The notes under the pieces were generated by a model that saw only the letters and a list, made by a program, of their open reading frames with translations, did not search any database and was not told the origin of the DNA. Positions 1,234 through 64,000 of a stretch of DNA of 64,000 nucleotides are shown piece after piece. Source of the DNA: Dehalococcoidia bacterium (GTDB lineage: Bacteria > Chloroflexota > Dehalococcoidia > Lucifugimonadales > JADFKI01); assembly GCA_965214635.1 (NCBI GenBank), contig OZ243964.1, forward strand, positions 1,939,696 through 2,003,695. Direction: 5' to 3'. Positions within the stretch are counted from its first letter, which is position 1. Every line of letters starts with the position of its first letter. A program made the translations under genes and the position numbers.

Positions 1234-1995
1234 ATGTTCGATCTGAGCGGCAAGGCAGCGGTGGTTACGGGCGGCAACGGCGGCATTGGGCTTGGCATCG
1301 CGCTGGGCTTGGCTGGCGCTGGCGCCGATGTGCTGGTGGCGGCACGCAACCGCGCCAAAACAGACGCCGCCGTCGAGCAGCTCCGCGCCCTGGGTGTTCG
1401 TGCCATCGGCACTGCCACCAATGTGCAGCATGAGGCAGAGGTCGCCGCTATGGTGCAGACGGCGCTGGACGAGTTCGGCAAGCTAGACATCCTCGTGAAC
1501 AACGCCGGCATCGGCATACGCAAAGCGCCGCAGGACTACACCGTGGAGGACTGGAACCTCATCATGGACATCAACCTGACCGGCACATTCCTGCCCTGTC
1601 GGGAGGCGTATCCGCACATGGCGGCAGCGGGCGGCGGCAAGATAATCAACATCGGCTCTATGACCTCCATCTTCGGGCACGACCTCGTGATGCCATACTC
1701 TGCGAGCAAGGGCGGCGTTGTGCAGCTGACCAAGAGCATCGCCACGGCGTGGGCGAAAGACAACATACAGGCGAACGCCATCCTGCCCGGCTGGATAGAG
1801 ACCGATATGACCGAGCCGCTCCGCACTGAGCCGAACTTCCGCGAGCGATACGAACTCATATCGGCGCGCATCCCGCACGGGCGATGGGGGACGCCCGCCG
1901 ATATGGCAGGCACCGCTGTGTTCCTCGCCTCCGCCGCATCCGACTATGTAACCGGCGTGTCCATCCCGGTCGACGGCGGCTATGTGGCGTTCTAG
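1234..1995 (+). CDS. SDR-family oxidoreductase
   Basis: 253 aa. Rossmann motif TGGNGGIGLGIA, LVNNAGI, catalytic YSASKGG. GAGGG RBS upstream. Confidence 0.9.
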   Translation: MFDLSGKAAVVTGGNGGIGLGIALGLAGAGADVLVAARNRAKTDAAVEQLRALGVRAIGTATNVQHEAEVAAMVQTALDEFGKLDILVNNAGIGIRKAPQDYTVEDWNLIMDINLTGTFLPCREAYPHMAAAGGGKIINIGSMTSIFGHDLVMPYSASKGGVVQLTKSIATAWAKDNIQANAILPGWIETDMTEPLRTEPNFRERYELISARIPHGRWGTPADMAGTAVFLASAASDYVTGVSIPVDGGYVAF

Positions 1996-2096
1996 CTAGC
2001 CCAGCAAACCGACGCCCCTTGTCGCCGCATCCGATGGCAGTCGGAGCGGCGACAAGAATACCGATGCGCGACGGGAAACAAGCACCCGCCGACACC

Positions 2097-3644
2097 CTAA
2101 ACGCCCGATTTCACGAAATCGGCGATGCGCTCGCCTATCATCATCGTGGTAACATTGATGTTGGCGCGCACGCAGTCGGGCATGATGGAGGCGTCCACGA
2201 CGCGCAAGCCCTCTGTGCCGTGGACCCGCCCATACTGGTCCACCACCGCATACGGGTCGTCCGCAAGCCCCATCTTGTTCGTGCAGGATATGTGATGTCC
2301 CGTGGTAACCTCGCGCTTCATCCACTCGTCAAGCGCATCGTCTGATTTCAGCGCATCGTCGGGCGGCTCTATGCGGGTGTCGATGATGCCTGACCACGCC
2401 TCGTGCTCACCCAGTTCAGTGCATATCCGCACCGCCTCGCGCATCCGCTCGAGGTCAAACGGCTCTTGGAAGTAGTTGTAATCCAGCAGCGGCTGCACAG
2501 TGGGGTCGCTGGACTGCAGCTTCAGTTCGCCGGCGCCCAGCGCAAGGTCTAGCCCGATTATCATCCGTATCCCGATTGGCGTCATCCTGTCGCCGCCGCG
2601 GTCTATGCGGTCGGTGGCGTAGATGTTCATATACACGATCATGTCGTTTTCCATATCCGAGCCGCCGGCGGTGTAGCGCAGCCCGAACTGGATGCGAGGC
2701 CCGAAGGTCTCCAAGTCGTACTCAGGCTTCGTCTTCCATGTAACATAGACCAGCGGATGGTCGCGCAGGTTCTGCCCCACGCCGGGCGCATCCTTGACCA
2801 GCGGTATGCCGAACTCGCGCAGGTGCTCCGCGGGGCCAATCCCCGACAGCATCAGGATCTGCGGCGAACCCACGGCGCCGGCGCTGAGGATTATCTCCCC
2901 GCCATCAACCACAAACCGCTCCCCGCCGCTCTCCACATCCACCCCCGTCGCTCGGTTGCCGTCGAACACGATGCGGTGCACCGTGCAGTCCGGGCGTATC
3001 GTGAGATTCAGCCGATGCCGAGACAGGCTGAGGTATCCGAGGTTCGTGCTCCAGCGTATCCCGTCCGGGTTGTTCAGGGGCAACGGCCCAACGCCGGTCG
3101 TGTCCGGGGCGTTGTGGTCGGGACAGTCCGCAAAGCCGTAGGCTAGGCAGGACTGATAGAACGCCTTGGATGCGCCGCGCCACGCCTCCTCCGGAAAGCG
3201 GTGGCATATGATGGGCCCATCTGTGCCGTGGAAGTCATCGCTGTATGTGGTGTCGGTTTCCAGCTTGCGGAAGTACGGCAGCGACTTCTCGAATGTCCAC
3301 TCTTCGTTGCCCCAAGCCGCCCAGCGGTCGTAGTCATCCGGGACACCGCGCAGGAATATCTGCCCGTTGATGGCGCTAGAGCCGCCAGTAACCTTGCCCC
3401 GCGGCACCATCATCGGGTCTGCCGCATCCGTGGCGCGTGCCGTGAACTGCCAGTTGTGGTCGCTAGTCATTATGTCCGTGGCGGACGCATAGCCGTACTT
3501 GACCTCTTCGGGCAGGTCGTCGATGCCCGCATAGTCCGGCCCCGCCTCCAGCAGCAGCACCGATGTGTTCGGGTCTTCCGTCAGACGGGTCGCCAAGATA
3601 GAACCCGCCGACCCTGCGCCGATGATGATGTAATCGTACTTCAT
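2097..3644 (-). CDS. GMC-family FAD oxidoreductase (choline dehydrogenase-like), paralog 1
   Basis: FAD fold DYIIIGAGSAGS..LLLEAGPD, RGKVTGGSSAINGQ, C-terminal VVDASIMPDCVRAN. The ORF-track TTG at 3653 sits 1 nt after AAGGAGG, whereas ATG 3644 (MKYDY) is 10 nt after it, so I use 3644. Confidence 0.9.
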   Translation of the reverse strand: MKYDYIIIGAGSAGSILATRLTEDPNTSVLLLEAGPDYAGIDDLPEEVKYGYASATDIMTSDHNWQFTARATDAADPMMVPRGKVTGGSSAINGQIFLRGVPDDYDRWAAWGNEEWTFEKSLPYFRKLETDTTYSDDFHGTDGPIICHRFPEEAWRGASKAFYQSCLAYGFADCPDHNAPDTTGVGPLPLNNPDGIRWSTNLGYLSLSRHRLNLTIRPDCTVHRIVFDGNRATGVDVESGGERFVVDGGEIILSAGAVGSPQILMLSGIGPAEHLREFGIPLVKDAPGVGQNLRDHPLVYVTWKTKPEYDLETFGPRIQFGLRYTAGGSDMENDMIVYMNIYATDRIDRGGDRMTPIGIRMIIGLDLALGAGELKLQSSDPTVQPLLDYNYFQEPFDLERMREAVRICTELGEHEAWSGIIDTRIEPPDDALKSDDALDEWMKREVTTGHHISCTNKMGLADDPYAVVDQYGRVHGTEGLRVVDASIMPDCVRANINVTTMMIGERIADFVKSGV

Positions 3645-3798: not shown

Positions 3799-4431
3799 TC
3801 AAGACGGGCAGCCCGATTCCCCGCCATAGAGGCGATGGCGGCGGATGTACGCCTCCACGGGCGGAGACACTCGATAGCGGACAGATTCGCCTGCGCCCAC
3901 GCGCCGTCGGATGTCGGTGGCGCTGATGTCCACCTGCGCCCCGTGTAGCAGCAGCGTGCGCTCTGCCGAACCCGGTATGGCGGCTTCCAGCGCCGACATA
4001 TCCAGCGACGCGCCCGGGCGCGCCATCCCCACCACGCGCGCCATAGCATACACCCGCTCCGGCTCGCTCCAGCGGTCTATGTCCCGCAGCGAGTCCGCGC
4101 CTAGCACCACATAAAGCTCTGCATCGGGATATTCAGCAGCAAGCTCCGCGAGCGTGTCTGCTGTGTAGCTCGGGCCACAGCGCCTGACCTCGATGTCTGA
4201 GACGGCGAAGTGTGGGTTGCCAGCTGTTGCCAACCGCACCATTGCTAGCCTGTGCTCAGCGGGCGTGACGGGCATGTCCGCCTTGAACCACGGCTCGCCG
4301 GCGGGTATGAACAGCACCTTGTCTAGCCGCAGCGCAGTGCGCGCATCCTCGGCGATGATGAGATGCCCCAAATGCACCGGGTCGAATGTGCCGCCGAACA
4401 CGCCGATACGCAAGGCTACTGCCACTCCCAT
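3799..4431 (-). CDS. nadD: nicotinate-nucleotide adenylyltransferase
   Basis: GVFGGTFDPVHLGHL nucleotidyltransferase motif. 210 aa. Overlaps the obg stop by 16 nt, the classic obg-nadD arrangement. Confidence 0.9.
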   Translation of the reverse strand: MGVAVALRIGVFGGTFDPVHLGHLIIAEDARTALRLDKVLFIPAGEPWFKADMPVTPAEHRLAMVRLATAGNPHFAVSDIEVRRCGPSYTADTLAELAAEYPDAELYVVLGADSLRDIDRWSEPERVYAMARVVGMARPGASLDMSALEAAIPGSAERTLLLHGAQVDISATDIRRRVGAGESVRYRVSPPVEAYIRRHRLYGGESGCPS

Positions 4432-5714
4432 TCCACATCCCCGAAGCGGACGGTATCGCCGGGGCCGGCGCCAGCGTCCTGCAGCGCCCGCACCACGCCT
4501 GCGCGCTGCAAGTAGCCCAAGAACTGCATCTGTGCGTTCCAGTCGGTGTCGTCCAGCAGGGCGGCGATGCGCACGGCGCGCTGTGCCTCGACCACATACA
4601 CTTCACCCCGCTTGCGCACGACCGGCGCTTCCCTGCGAGGCTTGAGCCGCAGCACGGGCAGCGCATCATCGGGGGCGGATGGCGCACCCACATCGACGGG
4701 CGGGGGTGTCGTGCGCTCTGTTTCGCGCGCATCTTCAATCAGCGCAAGGGCGGCGTCCAACAGCGCATCCACGCCTTCGACCGTCGCAGCCGACACGAAC
4801 AGCGCATCCACACCCTCTTCGTCGAACTGCTTGCGGAACTGCGGGAGGCGCTCACGCACTTCGGTGATGTCCACTTTGTTTATAGCCACCACTTGAGGCT
4901 TGGACGCCAGCGCCTCGTTGAATAACCTCAGCTCGGCGTTAATCTTGCGATAGTCTTGCAGCGGGTGTTCGGCTGAGCCGTCTATGAGGTGCACCAGCGC
5001 GCGTGTGCGCTCGATGTGGCGCAGGAAGTCGTGCCCAAGCCCAACGCCGGCGTGTGCGCCCTCTATCAGCCCGGGGATGTCCACCATGACGAATGTTTGG
5101 CGGCGGTGCTCCACCATGCCGAGCGCCGGTTCAAGCGTGGTGAACGGGTAGTTGGCGACCTTGGGCTTGGCGGCGCTGACAACCGAGAGCAGGCTGGACT
5201 TGCCGGCGTTGGGCAGCCCGACGATGCCCACATCTGCGAGCAACTTCAACTCCAAGCGCAGCCGCAGCGCCTCGCCGCGCTCGCCCTGTTCCGCAAGCAG
5301 CGGGAAGCGGTTCGTGGGCGAGGCGAAGTGGGCGTTGCCAAGCCCGCCCCTGCCGCCGCGCGCAAGCTCCACGCGCTGCCCCTCAGCAGTAAGGTCTGCA
5401 AGCAAACGCGGCGGATTGGCGTCAGCGTCCCACACGAGCGTTCCAACTGGCACGCTGATGAACACATCCTCGCCCTTTGCGCCGTGCTTATGCGCCTTTG
5501 CGCCGCCACCGCCGTTGCCCGCAACGAACCGCCGCTTGTATCGGAACGATAGCAGCGTGTTCATATTCCCATCGCACAGTGCGAACACACTACCGCCATG
5601 ACCGCCGTCCCCACCATCCGGCCCGCCACGCGGCACATACTTCTCCCGCCGCCCGCTGACAACGCCGTTCCCGCCGTTCCCACTTTTAATGTGGATAATT
5701 ACATTGTCTATCAT
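4416..5714 (-). CDS. obg: GTPase Obg/CgtA
   Basis: Obg fold IHIKSGNGGNGVVSGRREKYVPRGGPDGGDGGHGGSV. G-domain GLPNAGKSSLL, DIPGLIEGA, NKVD. The ORF opens at 5729, but MIDNV at 5714 follows GGAG and matches typical Obg N-termini. Confidence 0.92.
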   Translation of the reverse strand: MIDNVIIHIKSGNGGNGVVSGRREKYVPRGGPDGGDGGHGGSVFALCDGNMNTLLSFRYKRRFVAGNGGGGAKAHKHGAKGEDVFISVPVGTLVWDADANPPRLLADLTAEGQRVELARGGRGGLGNAHFASPTNRFPLLAEQGERGEALRLRLELKLLADVGIVGLPNAGKSSLLSVVSAAKPKVANYPFTTLEPALGMVEHRRQTFVMVDIPGLIEGAHAGVGLGHDFLRHIERTRALVHLIDGSAEHPLQDYRKINAELRLFNEALASKPQVVAINKVDITEVRERLPQFRKQFDEEGVDALFVSAATVEGVDALLDAALALIEDARETERTTPPPVDVGAPSAPDDALPVLRLKPRREAPVVRKRGEVYVVEAQRAVRIAALLDDTDWNAQMQFLGYLQRAGVVRALQDAGAGPGDTVRFGDVEWEWQ

Positions 5715-6069
5715 AATCCACAACTCCATATAGCGAGTTTAGCTTTAGATAACAGTATCAGTAATAAGGGCGTGGATAGCGTGGATAACCCCAACCTGCG
5801 GTCTTGGATGGCGCGCGCAGCCTGTTTGTGAGAAGTGTGCCAGCCGCCACATCGTACTGCGGCGCAGGGCGTTCCGGGTGTAGTAGCTAGCCAGTCGCAG
5901 GCTCCGTTTTGCCCGCATATTCTAGCACACGCATAGGCTGTGGATACGCTGTTCGCATCTGTGGACGGGCGTGGTTCTGCATGTGGATCGAACTTTTCTT
6001 GAACAAGTCAAAACCCGAGTTATGCACATGCGGCACTGATTATCCACAGAAAAAGCCCACTTATCCACA
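5714..6069. other. DnaA-box cluster (candidate oriC or DnaA-titrating locus)
   Basis: Perfect TTATCCACA at 6040-6048 and 6061-6069. 8/9 boxes at 5714-5722, 5780-5788 (reverse), 5939-5947 (reverse) and 6020-6028. 7/9 boxes at 5771-5779 and 5982-5990 (both reverse). Lies in the longest non-coding, AT-richer gap of the window, between divergent genes. Confidence 0.5.
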
Positions 6070-6384
6070 TCTTTGGGGCTGCTATGTTCATTTTTTGTTC
6101 AGCCATAAGCCTAAAATGTCTTTATCACAGATGCCAGACAATGGGCAAAAACTTTGTTCGCTAATCGCACGGGCGTTCAGAGATGTGGGTGTTTCCTGTC
6201 AGCCTCTTGTCTTGTAGAATAAGCGCTGCACATTGACGCTGCAATCGTCCGATTTCTGATATTATTGCCTATCATCTAACATAGCCTGTTTAAATGGTCG
6301 GTGGGGGCATCCGGCTGTTCTCGCATATCCGAAATGGTCGGATGCTGGTATATAACGATAACCCTGCCCGGGAGGAACTTCCAT

Positions 6385-7767
6385 ATGGCGATGCACTTAC
6401 CCGCAAGCAGAGCCGACACCGTCAGCGAATATCGCACGGACGCTGGCGAGCTTCGCCCTGTATATGCCGATGTGATGACGGCGCTGGATGCGATGGGGAT
6501 CGACGAGATGACGCACCGCTGGCAGCAAGCCAAACGCCAAGTGGCGCTCGACGCCTTCTGCTTCCCGCTCGACCCCAAGTTCTACCGCCCCGTGCCGACC
6601 GACTGGATACCGCGCATCGTTACCAACGACGAGTGGCAGGTCGTCAAGGCGGGCGTGGAGCAGCGGCTCAAAGCCCTCAACTTGTTCCTGCTGAACCTAT
6701 ACGCCGGAAGCCAAGATGTCGTCCCGGATGATGTGGTCTATTCCTGCCAGTTCTTCTATCCGGAGTACCAAGACTTTCGCCCTGCCAAAGACCTGTTCGT
6801 GCACATATACGGCATAGACCTCGTGCAGGTGGCGGACGGGCGCTATGTGGTGCTCGAGGACAACCTGCGTATCCCCAGCGGCATCGCATACCAGATGAAG
6901 GCGGTGGAAATCGGCAGCAGCGTCATGCCCGAACTCGCCGCCGAATATGACATACTGCCATACGACATCCGCGAGACCTACTTGGACATATTCACATCGC
7001 TTTGCGACAAGGAGTCGCCCACCTGCGTGCTGCTCACCGATAGCAAGTATGGCTCAGCGTTCTTCGAGCACCGCTACCTCGCCGAGCTGCTGAACATCCC
7101 GCTCGTGGAAGGCTCGGACTTGTACATTGGCATCGGGGGCGATGTGTATATGAAGACGCTGGACGGCGATGTGAAGGTCGATCTCATCTACCGCCGCGTG
7201 GAAGACCTCGAAATCTTCGTGCCGGGGCTGACGGAGGCGTATCTGAACCACAAGGTCGTGCTGGTGAACGGGATGGGGACGAGCGTCGCAGACGATAAGC
7301 TCGTGTTCCTGTGGGTGCCGGAGATGATACGGAGCTATCTCGGCGAAGAGCCTATCTTGGATCAGGCGATGAGCTACGACCTCGCAGACACCGATAGTCG
7401 GAGATATGTGCTGGAGAACCTAGACCATATGGTGCTGAAGACCCGTCAGGGCTACGGCGGGCTTGGCGTGTACATAATGACCGACCTCGGCGGCAACTAT
7501 CACTCCCAGCTCACGCGGCAGATTATCGAGGATCCGCGCGGACTCATAGCGCAAGAGACGCTGAACTTCTCCAAGCATCTGGTCTATGATGAGGCGGCGG
7601 GCGAGTTCGATGAGCGCTACATAGACCTGCGCGTGTACGCCGTGCAAAACGGACGAGGCGAAGCCACCGCCTTCCCCGGCGGGCTGACGCGTGTCTCGCG
7701 CCCCGACAACCGCGTTACGAATAACTCCTCAGGTGGACTATGCAAGCCGACTTGGGTGGTCAGATAA
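6385..7767 (+). CDS. circularly permuted type-2 ATP-grasp protein
   Basis: 460 aa from ATG 6385, with GGAGG at 6372-6376. The ORF opens at 6301. The sequence layout (..YRTDAGELRPVY..GIDLVQVADGRYVVLEDNLRIPSG..YIDLRVYAV..) matches the COG2308-type ATP-grasp family that pairs with alpha-E and transglutaminase genes. Confidence 0.8.
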   Translation: MAMHLPASRADTVSEYRTDAGELRPVYADVMTALDAMGIDEMTHRWQQAKRQVALDAFCFPLDPKFYRPVPTDWIPRIVTNDEWQVVKAGVEQRLKALNLFLLNLYAGSQDVVPDDVVYSCQFFYPEYQDFRPAKDLFVHIYGIDLVQVADGRYVVLEDNLRIPSGIAYQMKAVEIGSSVMPELAAEYDILPYDIRETYLDIFTSLCDKESPTCVLLTDSKYGSAFFEHRYLAELLNIPLVEGSDLYIGIGGDVYMKTLDGDVKVDLIYRRVEDLEIFVPGLTEAYLNHKVVLVNGMGTSVADDKLVFLWVPEMIRSYLGEEPILDQAMSYDLADTDSRRYVLENLDHMVLKTRQGYGGLGVYIMTDLGGNYHSQLTRQIIEDPRGLIAQETLNFSKHLVYDEAAGEFDERYIDLRVYAVQNGRGEATAFPGGLTRVSRPDNRVTNNSSGGLCKPTWVVR

Positions 7768-9482: not shown

Positions 9483-10280
9483 CTACCGCCGAAACTCTAT
9501 GCGCTTGAACGCCTCGGCGTGCTGCATGCCCTTGCCGACTGCCCGCTGCCTGCGCCATTGGCGCATCGCGTCGTGCGCCCACGCCTCGTCCCTGCCGTGC
9601 ATCTGCGACTTGTGCTGCATGAGCGCACTGACCGATGTGTCCATATGCTCTGTAACATCTATGTACAGGTCTGGGTCTGGGTGTCCCATTATCCACACTT
9701 CCGCCACCTTGTGCGGCTCGAACCCGGCTTCTAGCAGGTCAGGGAAGGTCATGTGGTCGCGCGCGGCGGGGAACACCGCTTGCAGCGCAGCCTCGCCCGC
9801 CGCCATGTGGTCGGGGTGTCCCACGCCCCAGCCGCCGTCTAGGTTGCGCATCGGATACATCGTGATGACCACATCGGGCTTATACCGCCGTATTTCGCGG
9901 GCGATGTCCTTCCGCAGCTCCAGCGTGGGCACGAGCATGCTGTCTTCATAGGCGAGGAACACCACATCTTTCAGCCCCAGCGTCTTGCCGGCGTTGACCT
10001 GCTCTTTGCGGCGTATGCGCGCCAGCTTCTCTTGCGTCATATTCGGGTCAGAGCTGCCCTTGCTGCCGTCGGTGCACATCACATACACCATCTCCCATCC
10101 GGCGGCGCACAGCTTGGCAACAGTGCCGGAGCAGCCGAATTCGGCGTCATCTGCGTGTGCTATCACCACCATCCCGCGCGTGAAACTCTCGTCCACCTTG
10201 CGATCCACATCCACGCCCATCCCCTCTATGCGGGGTGGTATTTCTTGTCCGTTCTTGCCGTCCGTCCTGTCCTGTGTCAT
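9483..10280 (-). CDS. PIG-L/LmbE-family deacetylase
   Basis: VVIAHADDAEFGCSG and HPDHMAAGEA metal-binding motifs. GGGAG RBS before ATG 10280. Confidence 0.85.
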   Translation of the reverse strand: MTQDRTDGKNGQEIPPRIEGMGVDVDRKVDESFTRGMVVIAHADDAEFGCSGTVAKLCAAGWEMVYVMCTDGSKGSSDPNMTQEKLARIRRKEQVNAGKTLGLKDVVFLAYEDSMLVPTLELRKDIAREIRRYKPDVVITMYPMRNLDGGWGVGHPDHMAAGEAALQAVFPAARDHMTFPDLLEAGFEPHKVAEVWIMGHPDPDLYIDVTEHMDTSVSALMQHKSQMHGRDEAWAHDAMRQWRRQRAVGKGMQHAEAFKRIEFRR

Positions 10281-16129: not shown

Positions 16130-16254
16130 ACATCCTGCTTTGTGACTTTTGTCCAACCCTAAATCCAATAGCGCTTATCTTTGGGGTCAAGCATTGCTAT
16201 AATGACACCACGAAGTTCCGCAGCACAATCATACCAAGCTTCGGAGGTCTCCCC

Positions 16255-21727: not shown

Positions 21728-21860
21728 GCCCTTGATAGGTGGCTGAACTTTCCAACTTTCCTTTTTCCTTAATCCACAAACATCCACAAAGCCCTATGAT
21801 GCCCATTTGCTGGTAATATAGATGTGTGCTACCGGCTGCCACTAATAAGGAGGTGCGGAT

Positions 21861-41902: not shown

Positions 41903-42239
41903 AACCCGTCCGCCTCTTGGCTCTCTGTGTGTGTTTTGTGCGGCGTTCTCTGTTTACCCGCTGCCTAATCCCAATTCCATTAGCAGGGTGTTCACGGATT
42001 GGGCAAAACAGCCCGATTTCGCTGATGCGCCGCCGTTACATGGATGAGGCTGCACCTGCCCGATACATCATAATGCCTAGACGCCGATAACACAAAGATG
42101 TTGGGTTTTCAGCCCATCAGTCGCTTATTCTGTTGATCAAAGTTAATCAAATGTCGCCTTTTCTGGTTCTAGTTGTCATTTCCAGAGTGCGCGCATAGGC
42201 GGGAACTTGTATAATATAAGCGCTGCGCACGCTGGGCTT

Positions 42240-60797: not shown

Positions 60798-61688
60798 ATG
60801 GCATTTGGAAGTGGCGATTACATCTATGAAGTCGATGAGGGATGGGGCAAGCTGCCGGATGGCTTTGAGTTCAAGCAGGTGGCGGATGTTGCGGTGGACA
60901 GCGCGGACAATGTGTATGTCTATAATCGCGGCACGCATAACCTTGTCATATTCGACCGAGAGGGCAACTATCTGCGCTCGTGGGACTTGCAGCACAAAGA
61001 GCCACACGGCATCTGTGTGGACGACGCCGGGAATGTGTATATGGCGGACCGCGATTCGCATGTGGTAGAGAAGCGCGACTCGGAGGGCGGGCTGCTGCTC
61101 ACACTTGGCACGCGCGACAAGCCCTCCGACACGGGCGAGCAGAGCGAGCGCTTCTTGGTGGAGAAGCCGGGCGACCCGTTCAACATGCCCACGGGCATAA
61201 CGGTGAGCGGCGAAGGCGATTTGTACATCTCGGACGGTTACAGCAACTGTCGCGTGCACCATTACAACGCCAGCGGCTCGCTGATGAACTCTTGGGGAGT
61301 GCCGGGCAAGCTTAACCCCGGCGACTTCCACCTGCCGCACGGCATCGGCATTGACAGGCACGGGCGCGTTATCGTCGCCGACCGCGAGAACCACCGCATA
61401 CAGGTTTTCGACGAGAACGGCGAGTTCCAGCAGATATGGAGCGGTTTCCGTCAGCCCACATCGGTGGCGTTCGGCCCGGACGGGGAGATCTATGTGCCCG
61501 AGCTTCAGCACCGGGTCAGCATCATAGACGAAGAGGGCAACCTGCTGGCACGCTGGGGCGACGAGCATAGCCACGAGCCGGGGCTGTTCTACGCGCCGCA
61601 CGGTATGGCGATAGACTCGCACGGCGACATCTATGTGGGCGAGGTGCTAGAGGGCCAGCGCATCCAGAAGTTCATCCGCCAGCGGTAG
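60798..61688 (+). CDS. NHL-repeat beta-propeller protein (peptidylglycine amidating lyase-like)
   Basis: Repeated blocks: PHGICVDDAGNVYMADRDSHVV, PTGITVSGEGDLYISDGYSNCRV, PHGIGIDRHGRVIVADRENHRIQ, PTSVAFGPDGEIYV, PHGMAIDSHGDIYV. Confidence 0.8.
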   Translation: MAFGSGDYIYEVDEGWGKLPDGFEFKQVADVAVDSADNVYVYNRGTHNLVIFDREGNYLRSWDLQHKEPHGICVDDAGNVYMADRDSHVVEKRDSEGGLLLTLGTRDKPSDTGEQSERFLVEKPGDPFNMPTGITVSGEGDLYISDGYSNCRVHHYNASGSLMNSWGVPGKLNPGDFHLPHGIGIDRHGRVIVADRENHRIQVFDENGEFQQIWSGFRQPTSVAFGPDGEIYVPELQHRVSIIDEEGNLLARWGDEHSHEPGLFYAPHGMAIDSHGDIYVGEVLEGQRIQKFIRQR

Positions 61689-61952
61689 TTTTTGCTTTTT
61701 AGTCGTTGGTAATCAGTAATCAATTGGTCAGTATCTCGCCATCAATTTTGAGCAGATTTCTGACAGCCTGTGCTGACCATTGATTAACTGACTGCCTTTT
61801 GGAACTTATGAAGATATCTCCTGTTTATGTGAGTGCTGTAGAGACATCGGGCTATCGTAATGAAGAAGATTTCGCTTTTTGATTAGAGGTGAAGTCAATT
61901 AATGTTCACGCATCCACCCAATCAAGGGTCTACTGAAATCTGAGGTATCGCT

Positions 61953-62642
61953 ATGGCATACAATAGAATGACGCCTAATGCTAAATTCGAATACCTGAAA
62001 AGCCTTTATCTTGAGCGTTCACAAGACAATGATAGGGCGTATGAAGAAATGCCCGAGATATTTGAAGACGCCCGTGAAACGATAGAAGAGGATGCTAGAA
62101 GGGCGGGGAAAACGGATACAGGACAAGTGTGGCGGGCATGGAAAGGGAAAAATTATGAAAAACTTGTAAACTTCATCGTTTCTGATTGGATAGAAAGCGA
62201 ACTCCCCTTGAAAGTCATTGAAGGTTCACGACTTGAAAGGCGCCAGATTACTGACGATGTGCTGAGTAAAGTAAAGCGTAATCTGTTAGTTGATTTTGGT
62301 GTCCAAGGTTGCTTCCTTCCTGATGCCGATATTGTAGTCTATGATCCTCAGAATTCTTCTGTAAAAGCAATTATATCTTGCAAAACCAGTTTGCGAGAAC
62401 GCGTAGCACAGACAGGATTTTGGAAACGAAAATTAATGGACGATCCTGTAACCCGGCATATCAAGACATTCTTCGCGACTACTGATGGCGATTCGGATTT
62501 TTTCAAGGACAGGATTACCAAAGGCGCTGCAATTGCAATAGAAGAGTTGGACGCAGTTTATGTTGTCCGTAAAGATTTAATTGAACGATATAATGTTAGA
62601 ACATTGGACAAGATAATCGAGGAGCTTCGGAAGTGTCTGTAG
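61953..62642 (+). CDS. putative type II restriction endonuclease (PD-(D/E)xK-like)
   Basis: 229 aa in an AT-rich island. GAGGT RBS. Candidate catalytic block LPDADIVVYD..VKAIISCKTSLRER (D ... S/E-x-K). Overlaps the downstream methyltransferase gene by 10 nt. Family not recognised with certainty. Confidence 0.5.
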   Translation: MAYNRMTPNAKFEYLKSLYLERSQDNDRAYEEMPEIFEDARETIEEDARRAGKTDTGQVWRAWKGKNYEKLVNFIVSDWIESELPLKVIEGSRLERRQITDDVLSKVKRNLLVDFGVQGCFLPDADIVVYDPQNSSVKAIISCKTSLRERVAQTGFWKRKLMDDPVTRHIKTFFATTDGDSDFFKDRITKGAAIAIEELDAVYVVRKDLIERYNVRTLDKIIEELRKCL

Positions 62643-63829
62643 AGATTGACAAGTTGTCTCCACGCGCAAAAGCGTTTGCGGAGAAAATATTGGCGCTTGA
62701 ACTTTCAAAGAAACAGATGACCAACCCTCGTCTTGAAGCGCCGGACCCTGCAACGATACATGGGAAGATTACCGCCGACATCAAGAAGTTGAAGTCGAGG
62801 CTTGACGCATTCCAGAGGCAAATTGACAAGGAGTACGCCACACATTATGGGGAGTCTTTATCCTCCCAAAATGGGGTAGTCAAGTTGTCTCCACGCGCGA
62901 GAAATTTTGCCGAAAAAATAGTCGCGGTGGAGAACACCAAGTCTCAAATGCTTAATCCTGACATAGATCTGCTCAAAGCGGAGGCAATATACGACGAAAT
63001 TGTATCAGAATTCAAGAATCTGCAATCGCGATTGACCACATTTCAGAAACAGATTGACAAGGTATATTACAGCGTCAATCCTAACGCTCAGGATATACGC
63101 CCTGCACTGGAAGCTACAACTCTGTGGGACTTTCCAACGCAGAGCTACGGCACAACAAAAAAAGGCAACAGCAAATTCCAGGGCGTAACTCCGGCGTTCA
63201 TTATTTACAATATGGTGCAGCGATACACTGACCCGGGTGATGTTGTTCTTGATCCGATGTGCGGCAGTGGCACATCGCTTGATGTATGTAGAGAGGAAGG
63301 TCGCCAAATACACGCGTATGATCTTAGCCCGACCCGGGAAGACATTGTGGAAAATGACGCCCGAAGCATTCCCCTAGACGATGAATGCGTGGATATGGTG
63401 TTCATTGATTCTCCGTATGGGGATAACGTAAATTATTCTGATAATCCTGCCGATATTGGTAAGATTTCCGCCGAGGATGGCGACTTCTATGCTTCTCTAA
63501 GTAAGGTGGCCAAAGAATTGTATAGAGTGCTGAAACCGGGTAAGGTAATTGGTTGGCTCATTGGAGATCAATGGGTCAAACGAAAGTTCACGCCAGTTGG
63601 TTTCTACATCTATCAGATGCTAGAGAGTATGGATTTTGTGCCTGTCGACCTAATCTGCATTGCACGCAGAAACCAAAGTTCGAATACAGGCATATGGCAT
63701 TACCGGGCTATCAAGCATAACTTCTACCTGCGTGGTTTTAAGCATTTGATAATCATGCGAAAACCTTACGAAGGCGAAATTGTTGACAAATCTGAAATAA
63801 ACCGTCCTGCTTGGCAAAAGTACAAGTAA
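62633..63829 (+). CDS. DNA methyltransferase (N6-A/N4-C amino-MTase) with duplicated N-terminal module
   Basis: LWDFP..GVTPAFIIYNMVQRYTDPGDVVLDPMCGSGTS (motifs X and I) comes before VFIDSPYGD (motif IV) and LYRVLKPGKVIGWLIGD. The N-terminal 150 aa consists of two roughly 76-aa repeats. Confidence 0.8.
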   Translation: MSVEIDKLSPRAKAFAEKILALELSKKQMTNPRLEAPDPATIHGKITADIKKLKSRLDAFQRQIDKEYATHYGESLSSQNGVVKLSPRARNFAEKIVAVENTKSQMLNPDIDLLKAEAIYDEIVSEFKNLQSRLTTFQKQIDKVYYSVNPNAQDIRPALEATTLWDFPTQSYGTTKKGNSKFQGVTPAFIIYNMVQRYTDPGDVVLDPMCGSGTSLDVCREEGRQIHAYDLSPTREDIVENDARSIPLDDECVDMVFIDSPYGDNVNYSDNPADIGKISAEDGDFYASLSKVAKELYRVLKPGKVIGWLIGDQWVKRKFTPVGFYIYQMLESMDFVPVDLICIARRNQSSNTGIWHYRAIKHNFYLRGFKHLIIMRKPYEGEIVDKSEINRPAWQKYK

Positions 63830-64000
63830 CCCGCAAGCATACCCGTAAATTACGGCATGCTCCAAACTCCTGTGTCTTGGGGTAGCGTTTCTTGTCAAAG
63901 TCAGCAAAGGCGTTTATCGCTATAACCCTGATGTTGTGCATCAGAGGACGCTTGAAGACTTTACACCTGAACAGCGTAACGCGATTTTGAAACGCGATGG

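Follow-up and report, generated by a model that had tools for sequence, protein, structure and literature searches.

Genes and DnaA boxes at the obg locus

The window analysed here is a 64-kb stretch of DNA (C1:1939696-2003695) from the closed genome contig (C1; genome G000; 2,667,440 bp, 59% GC) of a SAR202-type Dehalococcoidia bacterium, and coordinates without a prefix are positions in this window. In it, obg, encoding the GTPase Obg/CgtA, and a gene for a circularly permuted ATP-grasp protein diverge from a gap that holds a dense cluster of boxes for the initiator DnaA (Table 1). An earlier account of the same DNA (the sequence-only reading) had proposed this gap as a chromosomal replication origin (oriC) that is not linked to dnaA. 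As stated there, dnaA is absent from the window; the genome has a single copy, intact and full length, which lies on the minus strand (C1:798551-800017) and is 1.145 Mb away from the cluster.

All eight boxes listed by the sequence-only reading were found in place by reading of the sequence and by scan. Its list had overlooked a further perfect box, which falls within obg in the codons for I-I-H. Seven boxes with at most one mismatch, three of them perfect, are thus contained in the 380 bp from 5690 to 6069. The window holds 20 boxes of this quality, compared with 6.4 ± 2.7 in shuffled sequences, and the genome holds 556, of which 20 are perfect. As judged by a scan of 700-bp stretches, the array with its seven boxes is the best in the genome, the maximum elsewhere being three. 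In a weighted 500-bp scan it scores 21.5, the runner-up 10 and the genome on average 0.77 (sd 0.89), and the Poisson genome-wide probability of at least seven boxes in 380 bp is ~2.5e-8. The comparison with the rest of the genome that had been suggested as a check hence places the box density of the array far above background (z ~23).

The runner-up consists of two perfect TTATCCACA boxes with starts 31 bp apart (C1:254715 and 254746; site C1:254715-254754), located between a hemA-like gene on the minus strand and a DAK2/DegV-like operon on the plus strand, and may be a DnaA-regulated promoter. Elsewhere in the window, an isolated perfect TTATCCACA box (9689-9697) and an isolated pair, TAATCCACA and ACATCCACA in one orientation (21770-21788), look like background or minor regulatory sites.

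The gap itself measures 670 bp (5715-6384) and not ~650 bp as first given, and the start of obg, previously placed at 5729, was corrected to the ATG at 5714, with the N-terminus of Obg reading MIDNVIIHIK. The gap is not strictly the longest of the window, as had been claimed, since a crude map of open reading frames (ORFs) includes gaps of 750 bp at 41903 (tRNA included) and 705 bp at 16130. It is indeed AT-rich, with 34-46% GC in 50-bp windows versus 59% genome-wide; the content is 34-38% at 5675-5775 and 38% at 6050-6125. Plus-strand genes do predominate in the ~30 kb to the right of the gap (20.2 kb, against 5.5 kb on the minus strand), and beyond this the bias is reversed. An ORF at 5909-6217 (plus strand, 102 aa) was rejected as a gene, as it overlaps the conserved non-coding array and the gap in relatives can be anywhere between 145 and 2975 bp long. 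The rightmost segment of the window (61000-64000) has a reduced GC content of 0.45-0.50 versus 0.59 genome-wide and may be foreign or island DNA.

Table 1. Features of the obg locus and of the DnaA-box array, ordered by position in the window.
Feature	Position	Strand	Remarks
obg (GTPase Obg/CgtA)	4416-5714	-	432 aa; Pfam GTP1_OBG (4.4e-55), MMR_HSR1, DUF1967
DnaA box TGTGGATAA	5690-5698	-	perfect; TTATCCACA read on the obg strand; inside obg at +16
DnaA box TAATCCACA	5714-5722	+	8/9; overlaps obg start codon
AT-rich stretch, candidate unwinding element	5715-5749		34-38% GC; between trios and obg ATG
Six DnaA-trio-like triplets	5750-5767	-	TTA TTA CTG ATA CTG TTA on obg strand; TAA CAG TAT CAG TAA TAA on plus strand, (NAN)x6
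Tandem boxes TTATCCACG and CTATCCACG	5771-5788	-	abutting; aimed at trios
DnaA box CTATCCACG	5771-5779	-	7/9; plus-strand letters CGTGGATAG
DnaA box TTATCCACG	5780-5788	-	8/9 (1 mismatch)
Extended -10 element TGCTAGAAT	5919-5927	-	reads toward obg; TGnTAnAAT conserved in alignment and intergenic sequences
DnaA box GTATCCACA	5939-5947	-	8/9
DnaA box	5982-5990	-	7/9; TGTGGATCG
Motif TTCAAGAAAAGTTCGATCCACA	5982-6003	-	includes 7/9 box 5982-5990; near-invariant alignment block, also in other genus members
DnaA box	6020-6028	+	8/9
Phased triple of boxes	6020-6069	+	one orientation (TGTGGATAA read toward obg); starts 20 and 21 bp apart, ~two helical turns
DnaA box TTATCCACA	6040-6048	+	perfect
DnaA box TTATCCACA	6061-6069	+	perfect; 12 bp from box 6040-6048
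Direct repeat TGTTCA-N5-TGTTCA	6085-6101	+	TGAACA on obg strand; ends fixed 15 bp from first box
Non-conserved zone with rearrangement breakpoint	6160-6384		dnaA 3' end on this side in relatives
Circularly permuted ATP-grasp gene	6385-7767	+	Pfam CP_ATPgrasp_2 (1.7e-98); new neighbour of the predicted origin

Conservation of the array and its ancestral linkage to dnaA

The relatives identified through Obg are Dehalococcoidia and SAR202-cluster genomes, and every relative locus fetched with Obg includes a similar box array no more than 360 bp upstream of obg, with dnaA directly upstream of the array. A box at obg +16, either perfect or with one mismatch, was present in 15/15 of the loci fetched in this way and in several others. 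Among 30 relatives examined, dnaA and obg are adjacent and co-oriented in all 18 genus members and in 10/10 determinable members of other families of the order, separated by 158-2975 bp. In a sample of the class, both genes were found in 109 genomes, with dnaA lying directly upstream of obg in 76 (median gap 316 bp), apart from it on one contig in 8 and on a different contig in 25. The genome studied here is therefore an exception to the dnaA-obg linkage in its genus, and not the sole one in the class.

The arrays in the dnaA-obg gaps of relatives have the same box order, the same orientation and the same 21/20-bp phasing as the array in the window. A search with the pair TTATCCAC-N10-14-TTATCCAC returned ten genomes with one or two (overlapping) matches each, all confined to the dnaA-obg gap or to the DNA immediately before obg, and the reversed control pattern gave no matches. 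The array is hence homologous to the dnaA-obg intergenic array of relatives, which points to the ancestral dnaA-linked oriC of the clade.

The wording of the boxes is less constant. The arrays of the nearest relatives (L019, L020 and L004-L006; G018, G023 and kin) use TGTAGATAA, CGTTGATAA and either TTATCTACA or TTATCAACA in place of TTATCCACA, and the boxes studied here are nearer to the consensus than those of G018 and G023. This dialect drifts within the class, being TTATCGAAA in the genome G095, whereas positions and spacing remain fixed.

G095 is a closed class member (1,362,151 bp, 47% GC) in which dnaA occupies 237-1547 and obg 1926-3191. As judged by 20 samples of 20 kb, the GC skew of its first ~700 kb is positive and that of the stretch between 748 kb and 1.31 Mb negative, a sign pattern that places the skew origin at the dnaA-obg locus. 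The 378-bp gap between these genes contains five of the 101 boxes of the TTATCGAAA dialect (at most one mismatch) found in a 400-kb sample, and three of these boxes show the 21- and 20-bp spacing, and the orientation relative to obg, that are seen in the window. The same dialect is assigned to Dehalococcoides by Ori-Finder (PMC2275245). The skew and boxes of G095 serve as the best available surrogate for functional evidence that the gap is an origin.

Architecture of the array and the candidate unwinding module

In the alignment of the genus, the elements follow one another toward obg in a conserved order, namely the TGAACA repeat, three boxes, the motif TTCAAGAAAAGTTCGATCCACA, the box GTATCCACA and the element TGCTAGAAT, then ~130 variable bp, the tandem boxes TTATCCACG and CTATCCACG, CCC, the triplets, AT-rich DNA and the obg ATG with the box at +16. 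The direct repeat and its 15-bp spacing from the first box are kept in the genome studied and in L007, L008, L014 and L019. On the other side of the phased triple, a single TGAACA is found at 5998-6003, and both the sequence and the spacing of these flanking copies are conserved across the genus. The TGTTCA repeat may serve as a binding site for a factor or provide a second AT-rich element.

The tandem boxes and the triplets resemble the basal unwinding system (BUS) of bacterial origins, for which the published criteria are a box with at most two mismatches, an optional tandem box with at most four, a spacer of 0-16 bp and at least three NAN triplets, with a peak of the box-to-trio spacer at 10-13 bp (PMC8287927). 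Trios were required on the 5' side of TGTGGATAA, an orientation rule drawn from Escherichia coli R1 and from the wording '5'-tail encoding DnaA-trios' (PMC8287927). The module in the window falls within these limits, as TTATCCACG has one mismatch and CTATCCACG two, the tandem boxes are followed by the spacer CCC (5768-5770), 12 bp separate the first trio from the better box, and six triplets are present. Furthermore, the TTA TTA run is preceded by box-like 9-mers at the same position in ~27/31 relatives, including G095. The match to the BUS together with the conserved triplet run suggests that the likely unwinding site is located at 5715-5770, beside obg, and from its composition and the published box-spacer-trio-AT-rich layout (PMC8287927) the stretch 5715-5749 is put forward as the candidate unwinding element.

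The sequence-only reading had placed possible unwinding tracts on the other side of the array. The first, at 6085-6135, does begin with the conserved TGTTCA repeat; it lacks trios, and 5715-5770 is the more likely site. The second, at 6255-6295, is not conserved and lies within the breakpoint zone. Neither tract is retained as an unwinding element.

Between the tandem boxes and the phased triple, TGCTAGAAT is, from its sequence, probably the obg promoter, and a promoter consensus scan did not call it as such. The box GTATCCACA ends 11 bp upstream of the TG of this extended -10 element, thus over the -35 position, and the combination of a box, a 12-14 bp spacer and TAGAAT is conserved among relatives. 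Given this overlap with the -35 position of the predicted promoter, a regulatory side-function of the box is plausible. The TAATCCACA box at the obg start codon is absent from relatives and sits in an insertion of ~22 bp that is specific to this genome.

Separation of dnaA from the array

Homology to the origin regions of relatives stops at ~6160 by alignment and at 6115 by blastn, and homology to their ATP-grasp loci begins at 6419. With no non-coding homology left upstream of the ATP-grasp genes of relatives, these limits bracket the breakpoint to ~6116/6160-6384. No remnant of dnaA was found near the cluster, no repeats were found at the rearrangement junctions, and the 3.4 kb around the present dnaA contain no box with at most one mismatch.

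The upstream neighbour of dnaA in G018 encodes a thiamine pyrophosphate (TPP) enzyme, and its ortholog lies at C1:949.5-951.2 kb in the genome studied. With dnaA, this ortholog and the array all apart, the old origin neighbourhood is now in three places. The distance between dnaA-obg and the ATP-grasp ortholog is 74-370 kb in 8/9 genus members and ~1.57 Mb in G013, and no fewer than two rearrangements close to the origin are needed to account for these positions.

Defence or addiction cassettes seem to use the interval between dnaA and the array as a landing site. In G010 (L008:1093-3580), a cassette with DndB-like, GIY-YIG and PAPS-reductase-like genes is found between the dnaA stop codon and the array, and in the genome of L010 (L010:2976-3628) a MazF/PemK toxin gene and a small upstream ORF occupy the corresponding position. 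The region directly upstream of the relocated dnaA (C1:800200-830000) contains about ten paralogous genes in tandem, which encode secreted proteins and share 71-86% DNA identity.

Interpretation as oriC and the evidence from skew

The proposal of an oriC unlinked to dnaA is supported by the homologous conserved array, by the skew origin of G095, by the standing of the array as the sole strong cluster of the genome and by the distance of 1.145 Mb to dnaA. With a probability of about three in four, as judged from sequence comparison, the segment 5690-6160 is the chromosomal oriC, of the ordinary DnaA-box/BUS type, the ancestral linkage of which to dnaA has been broken here by rearrangement.

In such an origin, DnaA would first occupy the phased high-affinity boxes (6020-6069) and the middle boxes (5939-5990), after which the tandem boxes (5771-5788) would steer a DnaA-ATP oligomer onto the six trios (5750-5767), and the AT-rich DNA at 5715-5749 would open immediately before the obg start, with the opening perhaps extending into it. 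The predicted promoter at 5919-5927 would drive obg through the unwinding region, so that DnaA may tune obg and transcription may aid opening. At least two rearrangements would have moved dnaA to its present position and put the operon of the circularly permuted ATP-grasp gene beside the origin. With the break falling within the dnaA-proximal, insertion-tolerant spacer, the whole origin module would have stayed intact.

Several observations weigh against this interpretation. The test of cumulative skew proposed by the sequence-only reading failed, as the minimum lies at ~1.0 Mb and the curve forms no robust V at 1.945 Mb, the position of the array in the contig. The skew is ~+0.03 over 1.0-1.6 Mb and about zero over 1.6-2.55 Mb, and the sign change at 1.945 Mb is local (~10 kb), with weakly positive values on both sides beyond it. 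Both the positive skew at 1.0-1.6 Mb and the 16S gene at 1.157 Mb on the plus strand are the opposite of what an origin at 1.945 Mb predicts. Nor is the dnaA-obg locus at a clean skew switch in G010 or G018. Moreover, the genome contains 14 instances of the trio pattern (at least six NTN triplets beside a box with at most two mismatches) among its 6451 loose boxes; 12 distinct sites are outside the array, mostly in coding DNA, and the pattern by itself is not specific. As the trio run lies within the obg leader, its conservation could also be for translation.

The weight of the skew depends on how far it can mark an origin in this genus. GC skew, GC skew at third codon positions (GC3 skew) and gene-strand-corrected skew were computed for the genome, and the clearest feature is a terminus-like switch from positive to negative at ~0.44 Mb. 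With a terminus at this position, the replichores would be 56.5:43.5 for an origin at 1.945 Mb, ~14:86 for one at dnaA and ~21:79 for one at the skew minimum. The skew of the closed genus member G010, sampled in 40 segments of 20 kb, is equally mosaic, and hence the failed test does not refute the interpretation as oriC. With the dnaA-obg locus of G018 additionally lying in a skewed block, skew is unusable as an origin marker in the genus. The cumulative minimum is, furthermore, partly driven by a 55-kb block (C1:945-999.3 kb) with a skew of -0.16 to -0.38 irrespective of gene strand.

This block (C1:945000-999300, with C1:1025000-1030000 listed in addition) has an AT skew of ~+0.2 on the plus strand and a sharp right edge at ~999.28 kb. 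Its core genes include those for the TPP enzyme, MutS2, topoisomerase I (TopA), a xanthine-dehydrogenase-like protein and a leucine-rich repeat (LRR) protein. The genes at 951-968 kb are syntenic with 2.197-2.217 Mb of G010, where the skew is just -0.10. In G018, the entire dnaA-obg locus (455-468 kb) is skewed, from -0.18 to -0.29.

The orientation of RNA genes does not discriminate between positions of the origin. In the arc that runs from 1.98 Mb through the contig ends to 0.41 Mb, 23/27 tRNA genes are on the plus strand; at 0.43-1.03 Mb, 10/11 are on the minus strand, and the orientation is mixed between. Together with the rRNA genes this is compatible with an origin anywhere from 1.03 to 1.98 Mb (39, 40 and 37 of 48 genes co-oriented). 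The tRNA and 16S pattern argues that the segment 1.0-1.7 Mb was rearranged. The rRNA genes are unlinked, with a single 16S gene (C1:1157336) and a single 23S marker (C1:276506) ~0.88 Mb apart. Gene-strand bias over the genome, from a crude ORF call, had no usable shape, and a genome-wide search for parS-like sites and a ParB gene as origin markers found none. The one match to a dif site, at 488.8 kb, was rejected, as it corresponds to a promoter and start codon.

Alternative explanations

The array could be only a DnaA-controlled regulatory region of obg or a titrating site, with replication starting elsewhere, for example at ~1.0 Mb from an origin without recognisable TTATCCACA boxes. The conserved extended -10 element with a box over its -35 position and the box inside obg are consistent with this, and the skew minimum, the positive skew at 1.0-1.6 Mb and the plus-strand 16S gene fit an origin near 1.0 Mb better; the ortholog of the gene next to dnaA in G018 is also now at 0.95 Mb. 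However, nine to ten boxes, helical phasing and a box-trio module far exceed the needs of a promoter operator, the skew origin of G095 coincides with the homologous gap, and an origin at 1.0 Mb gives the uneven replichores of ~21:79. Titration would call for a separate oriC elsewhere, and none was found; no other cluster exists, and the box matches at ~0.99 Mb are by-products of a C/A-rich composition. This explanation is therefore considered unlikely, and the titration or regulatory locus that had been offered as a fallback is not needed, given the box-trio module and the lack of a second comparable cluster. A broader departure, in which replication in the genus does not follow the rule of one origin and two replichores and the array is one player or mainly a regulatory hub for obg and DnaA, is judged quite unlikely. 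Its symptoms would be a skew that is mosaic, blocks in which the strand skew is extreme whatever the gene orientation, and the disagreement between an array at 1.945 Mb and a minimum at ~1.0 Mb; the regime could consist of a second, box-less start site or of long-lived single-strandedness of certain segments.

A false join in the assembly, with dnaA abutting the array in the real chromosome, is favoured by the adjacency kept in 28/28 determinable relatives in the genus and order, and the genome is probably metagenome-assembled, with an estimated contamination of 4.66% and a patchy skew. Yet the skew of relatives is equally patchy, the junctions share no repeat that could cause a false join, and at least eight other class genomes have dnaA and obg apart on one contig. 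As dnaA, its former neighbour and the array are at three places, several independent false joins would be needed, and an assembly error is very unlikely. It is highly improbable that the array is a recently displaced and disused ancestral origin, with initiation now at a new site or independent of DnaA: the mismatch of the skew and the genus blocks of extreme strand skew, which hint at atypical strand biology, can be read in this way, whereas all conserved elements are intact, the boxes are nearer to the consensus than in G018 and G023, the origin is single-copy, and dnaA is intact and full length. The interpretation of the array as a working oriC, parted from dnaA by rearrangement, is therefore preferred.

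Comparison with known origins and significance

In E. coli, oriC lies between gidA and mioC, 42 kb from dnaA. Like it, the predicted origin is split from dnaA by rearrangement, has flanking transcription directed toward or through it and uses the consensus box TTATCCACA. The separation is ~27 times larger here and is recent, with 28/28 determinable genus and order relatives still linked, and the module is clear, unlike the weak BUS score of E. coli. The E. coli datA locus and the DnaA-box clusters of Bacillus subtilis coexist with a separate oriC and have no unwinding module. The array resembles these loci as a dense box cluster far from dnaA and differs from them in that the genome has no other cluster and in the presence of the box-trio module.

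The characterisation of the BUS in B. subtilis is reportedly due to Richardson et al. (2016/2019) and Pelliciari et al. (2021). The type case is incC of the B. subtilis oriC, in which further boxes act in either orientation and in dependence on helical phase (PMC8287927, PMC6669920). As in incC, the predicted module lies downstream of dnaA (here ancestrally) and runs from an abutting box pair through a short GC spacer and DnaA-trios into AT-rich DNA, with more boxes upstream at a distance. Unlike in B. subtilis, the downstream gene is obg and not dnaN, the array is monopartite with no second box cluster upstream of dnaA, and the trios read 3'-AAT AAT GAC TAT GAC AAT-5' rather than being GAT-rich. 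The AT-rich part is also short and abuts the start codon, and dnaA is 1.15 Mb distant. A counterpart in position is the predicted Dehalococcoides oriC (Ori-Finder/DoriC; PMC2275245), which has the homologous place between dnaA and obg, boxes phased by 21/20 bp and TTA-rich triplets before obg; the array studied here differs from it in its classical TTATCCACA boxes in place of TTATCGAAA, in the absence of an adjacent dnaA and in a mosaic skew in place of a clean V.

The predicted origin is of an ordinary kind in an unusual arrangement. For a lineage of Dehalococcoidia that is uncultured and marine or sponge-associated, it supplies a concrete origin defined by its sequence, and the dnaA-oriC-obg layout to which it belongs, including the phased box triple and the box-trio module, is kept across most of the class. 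For origin predictors it is a caution, since in this genus a search guided by GC skew or by the position of dnaA would be led away from the only credible origin. The genome also offers a natural case in which dnaA would have moved more than 1 Mb from an intact origin, useful for asking whether the linkage of dnaA and oriC matters.

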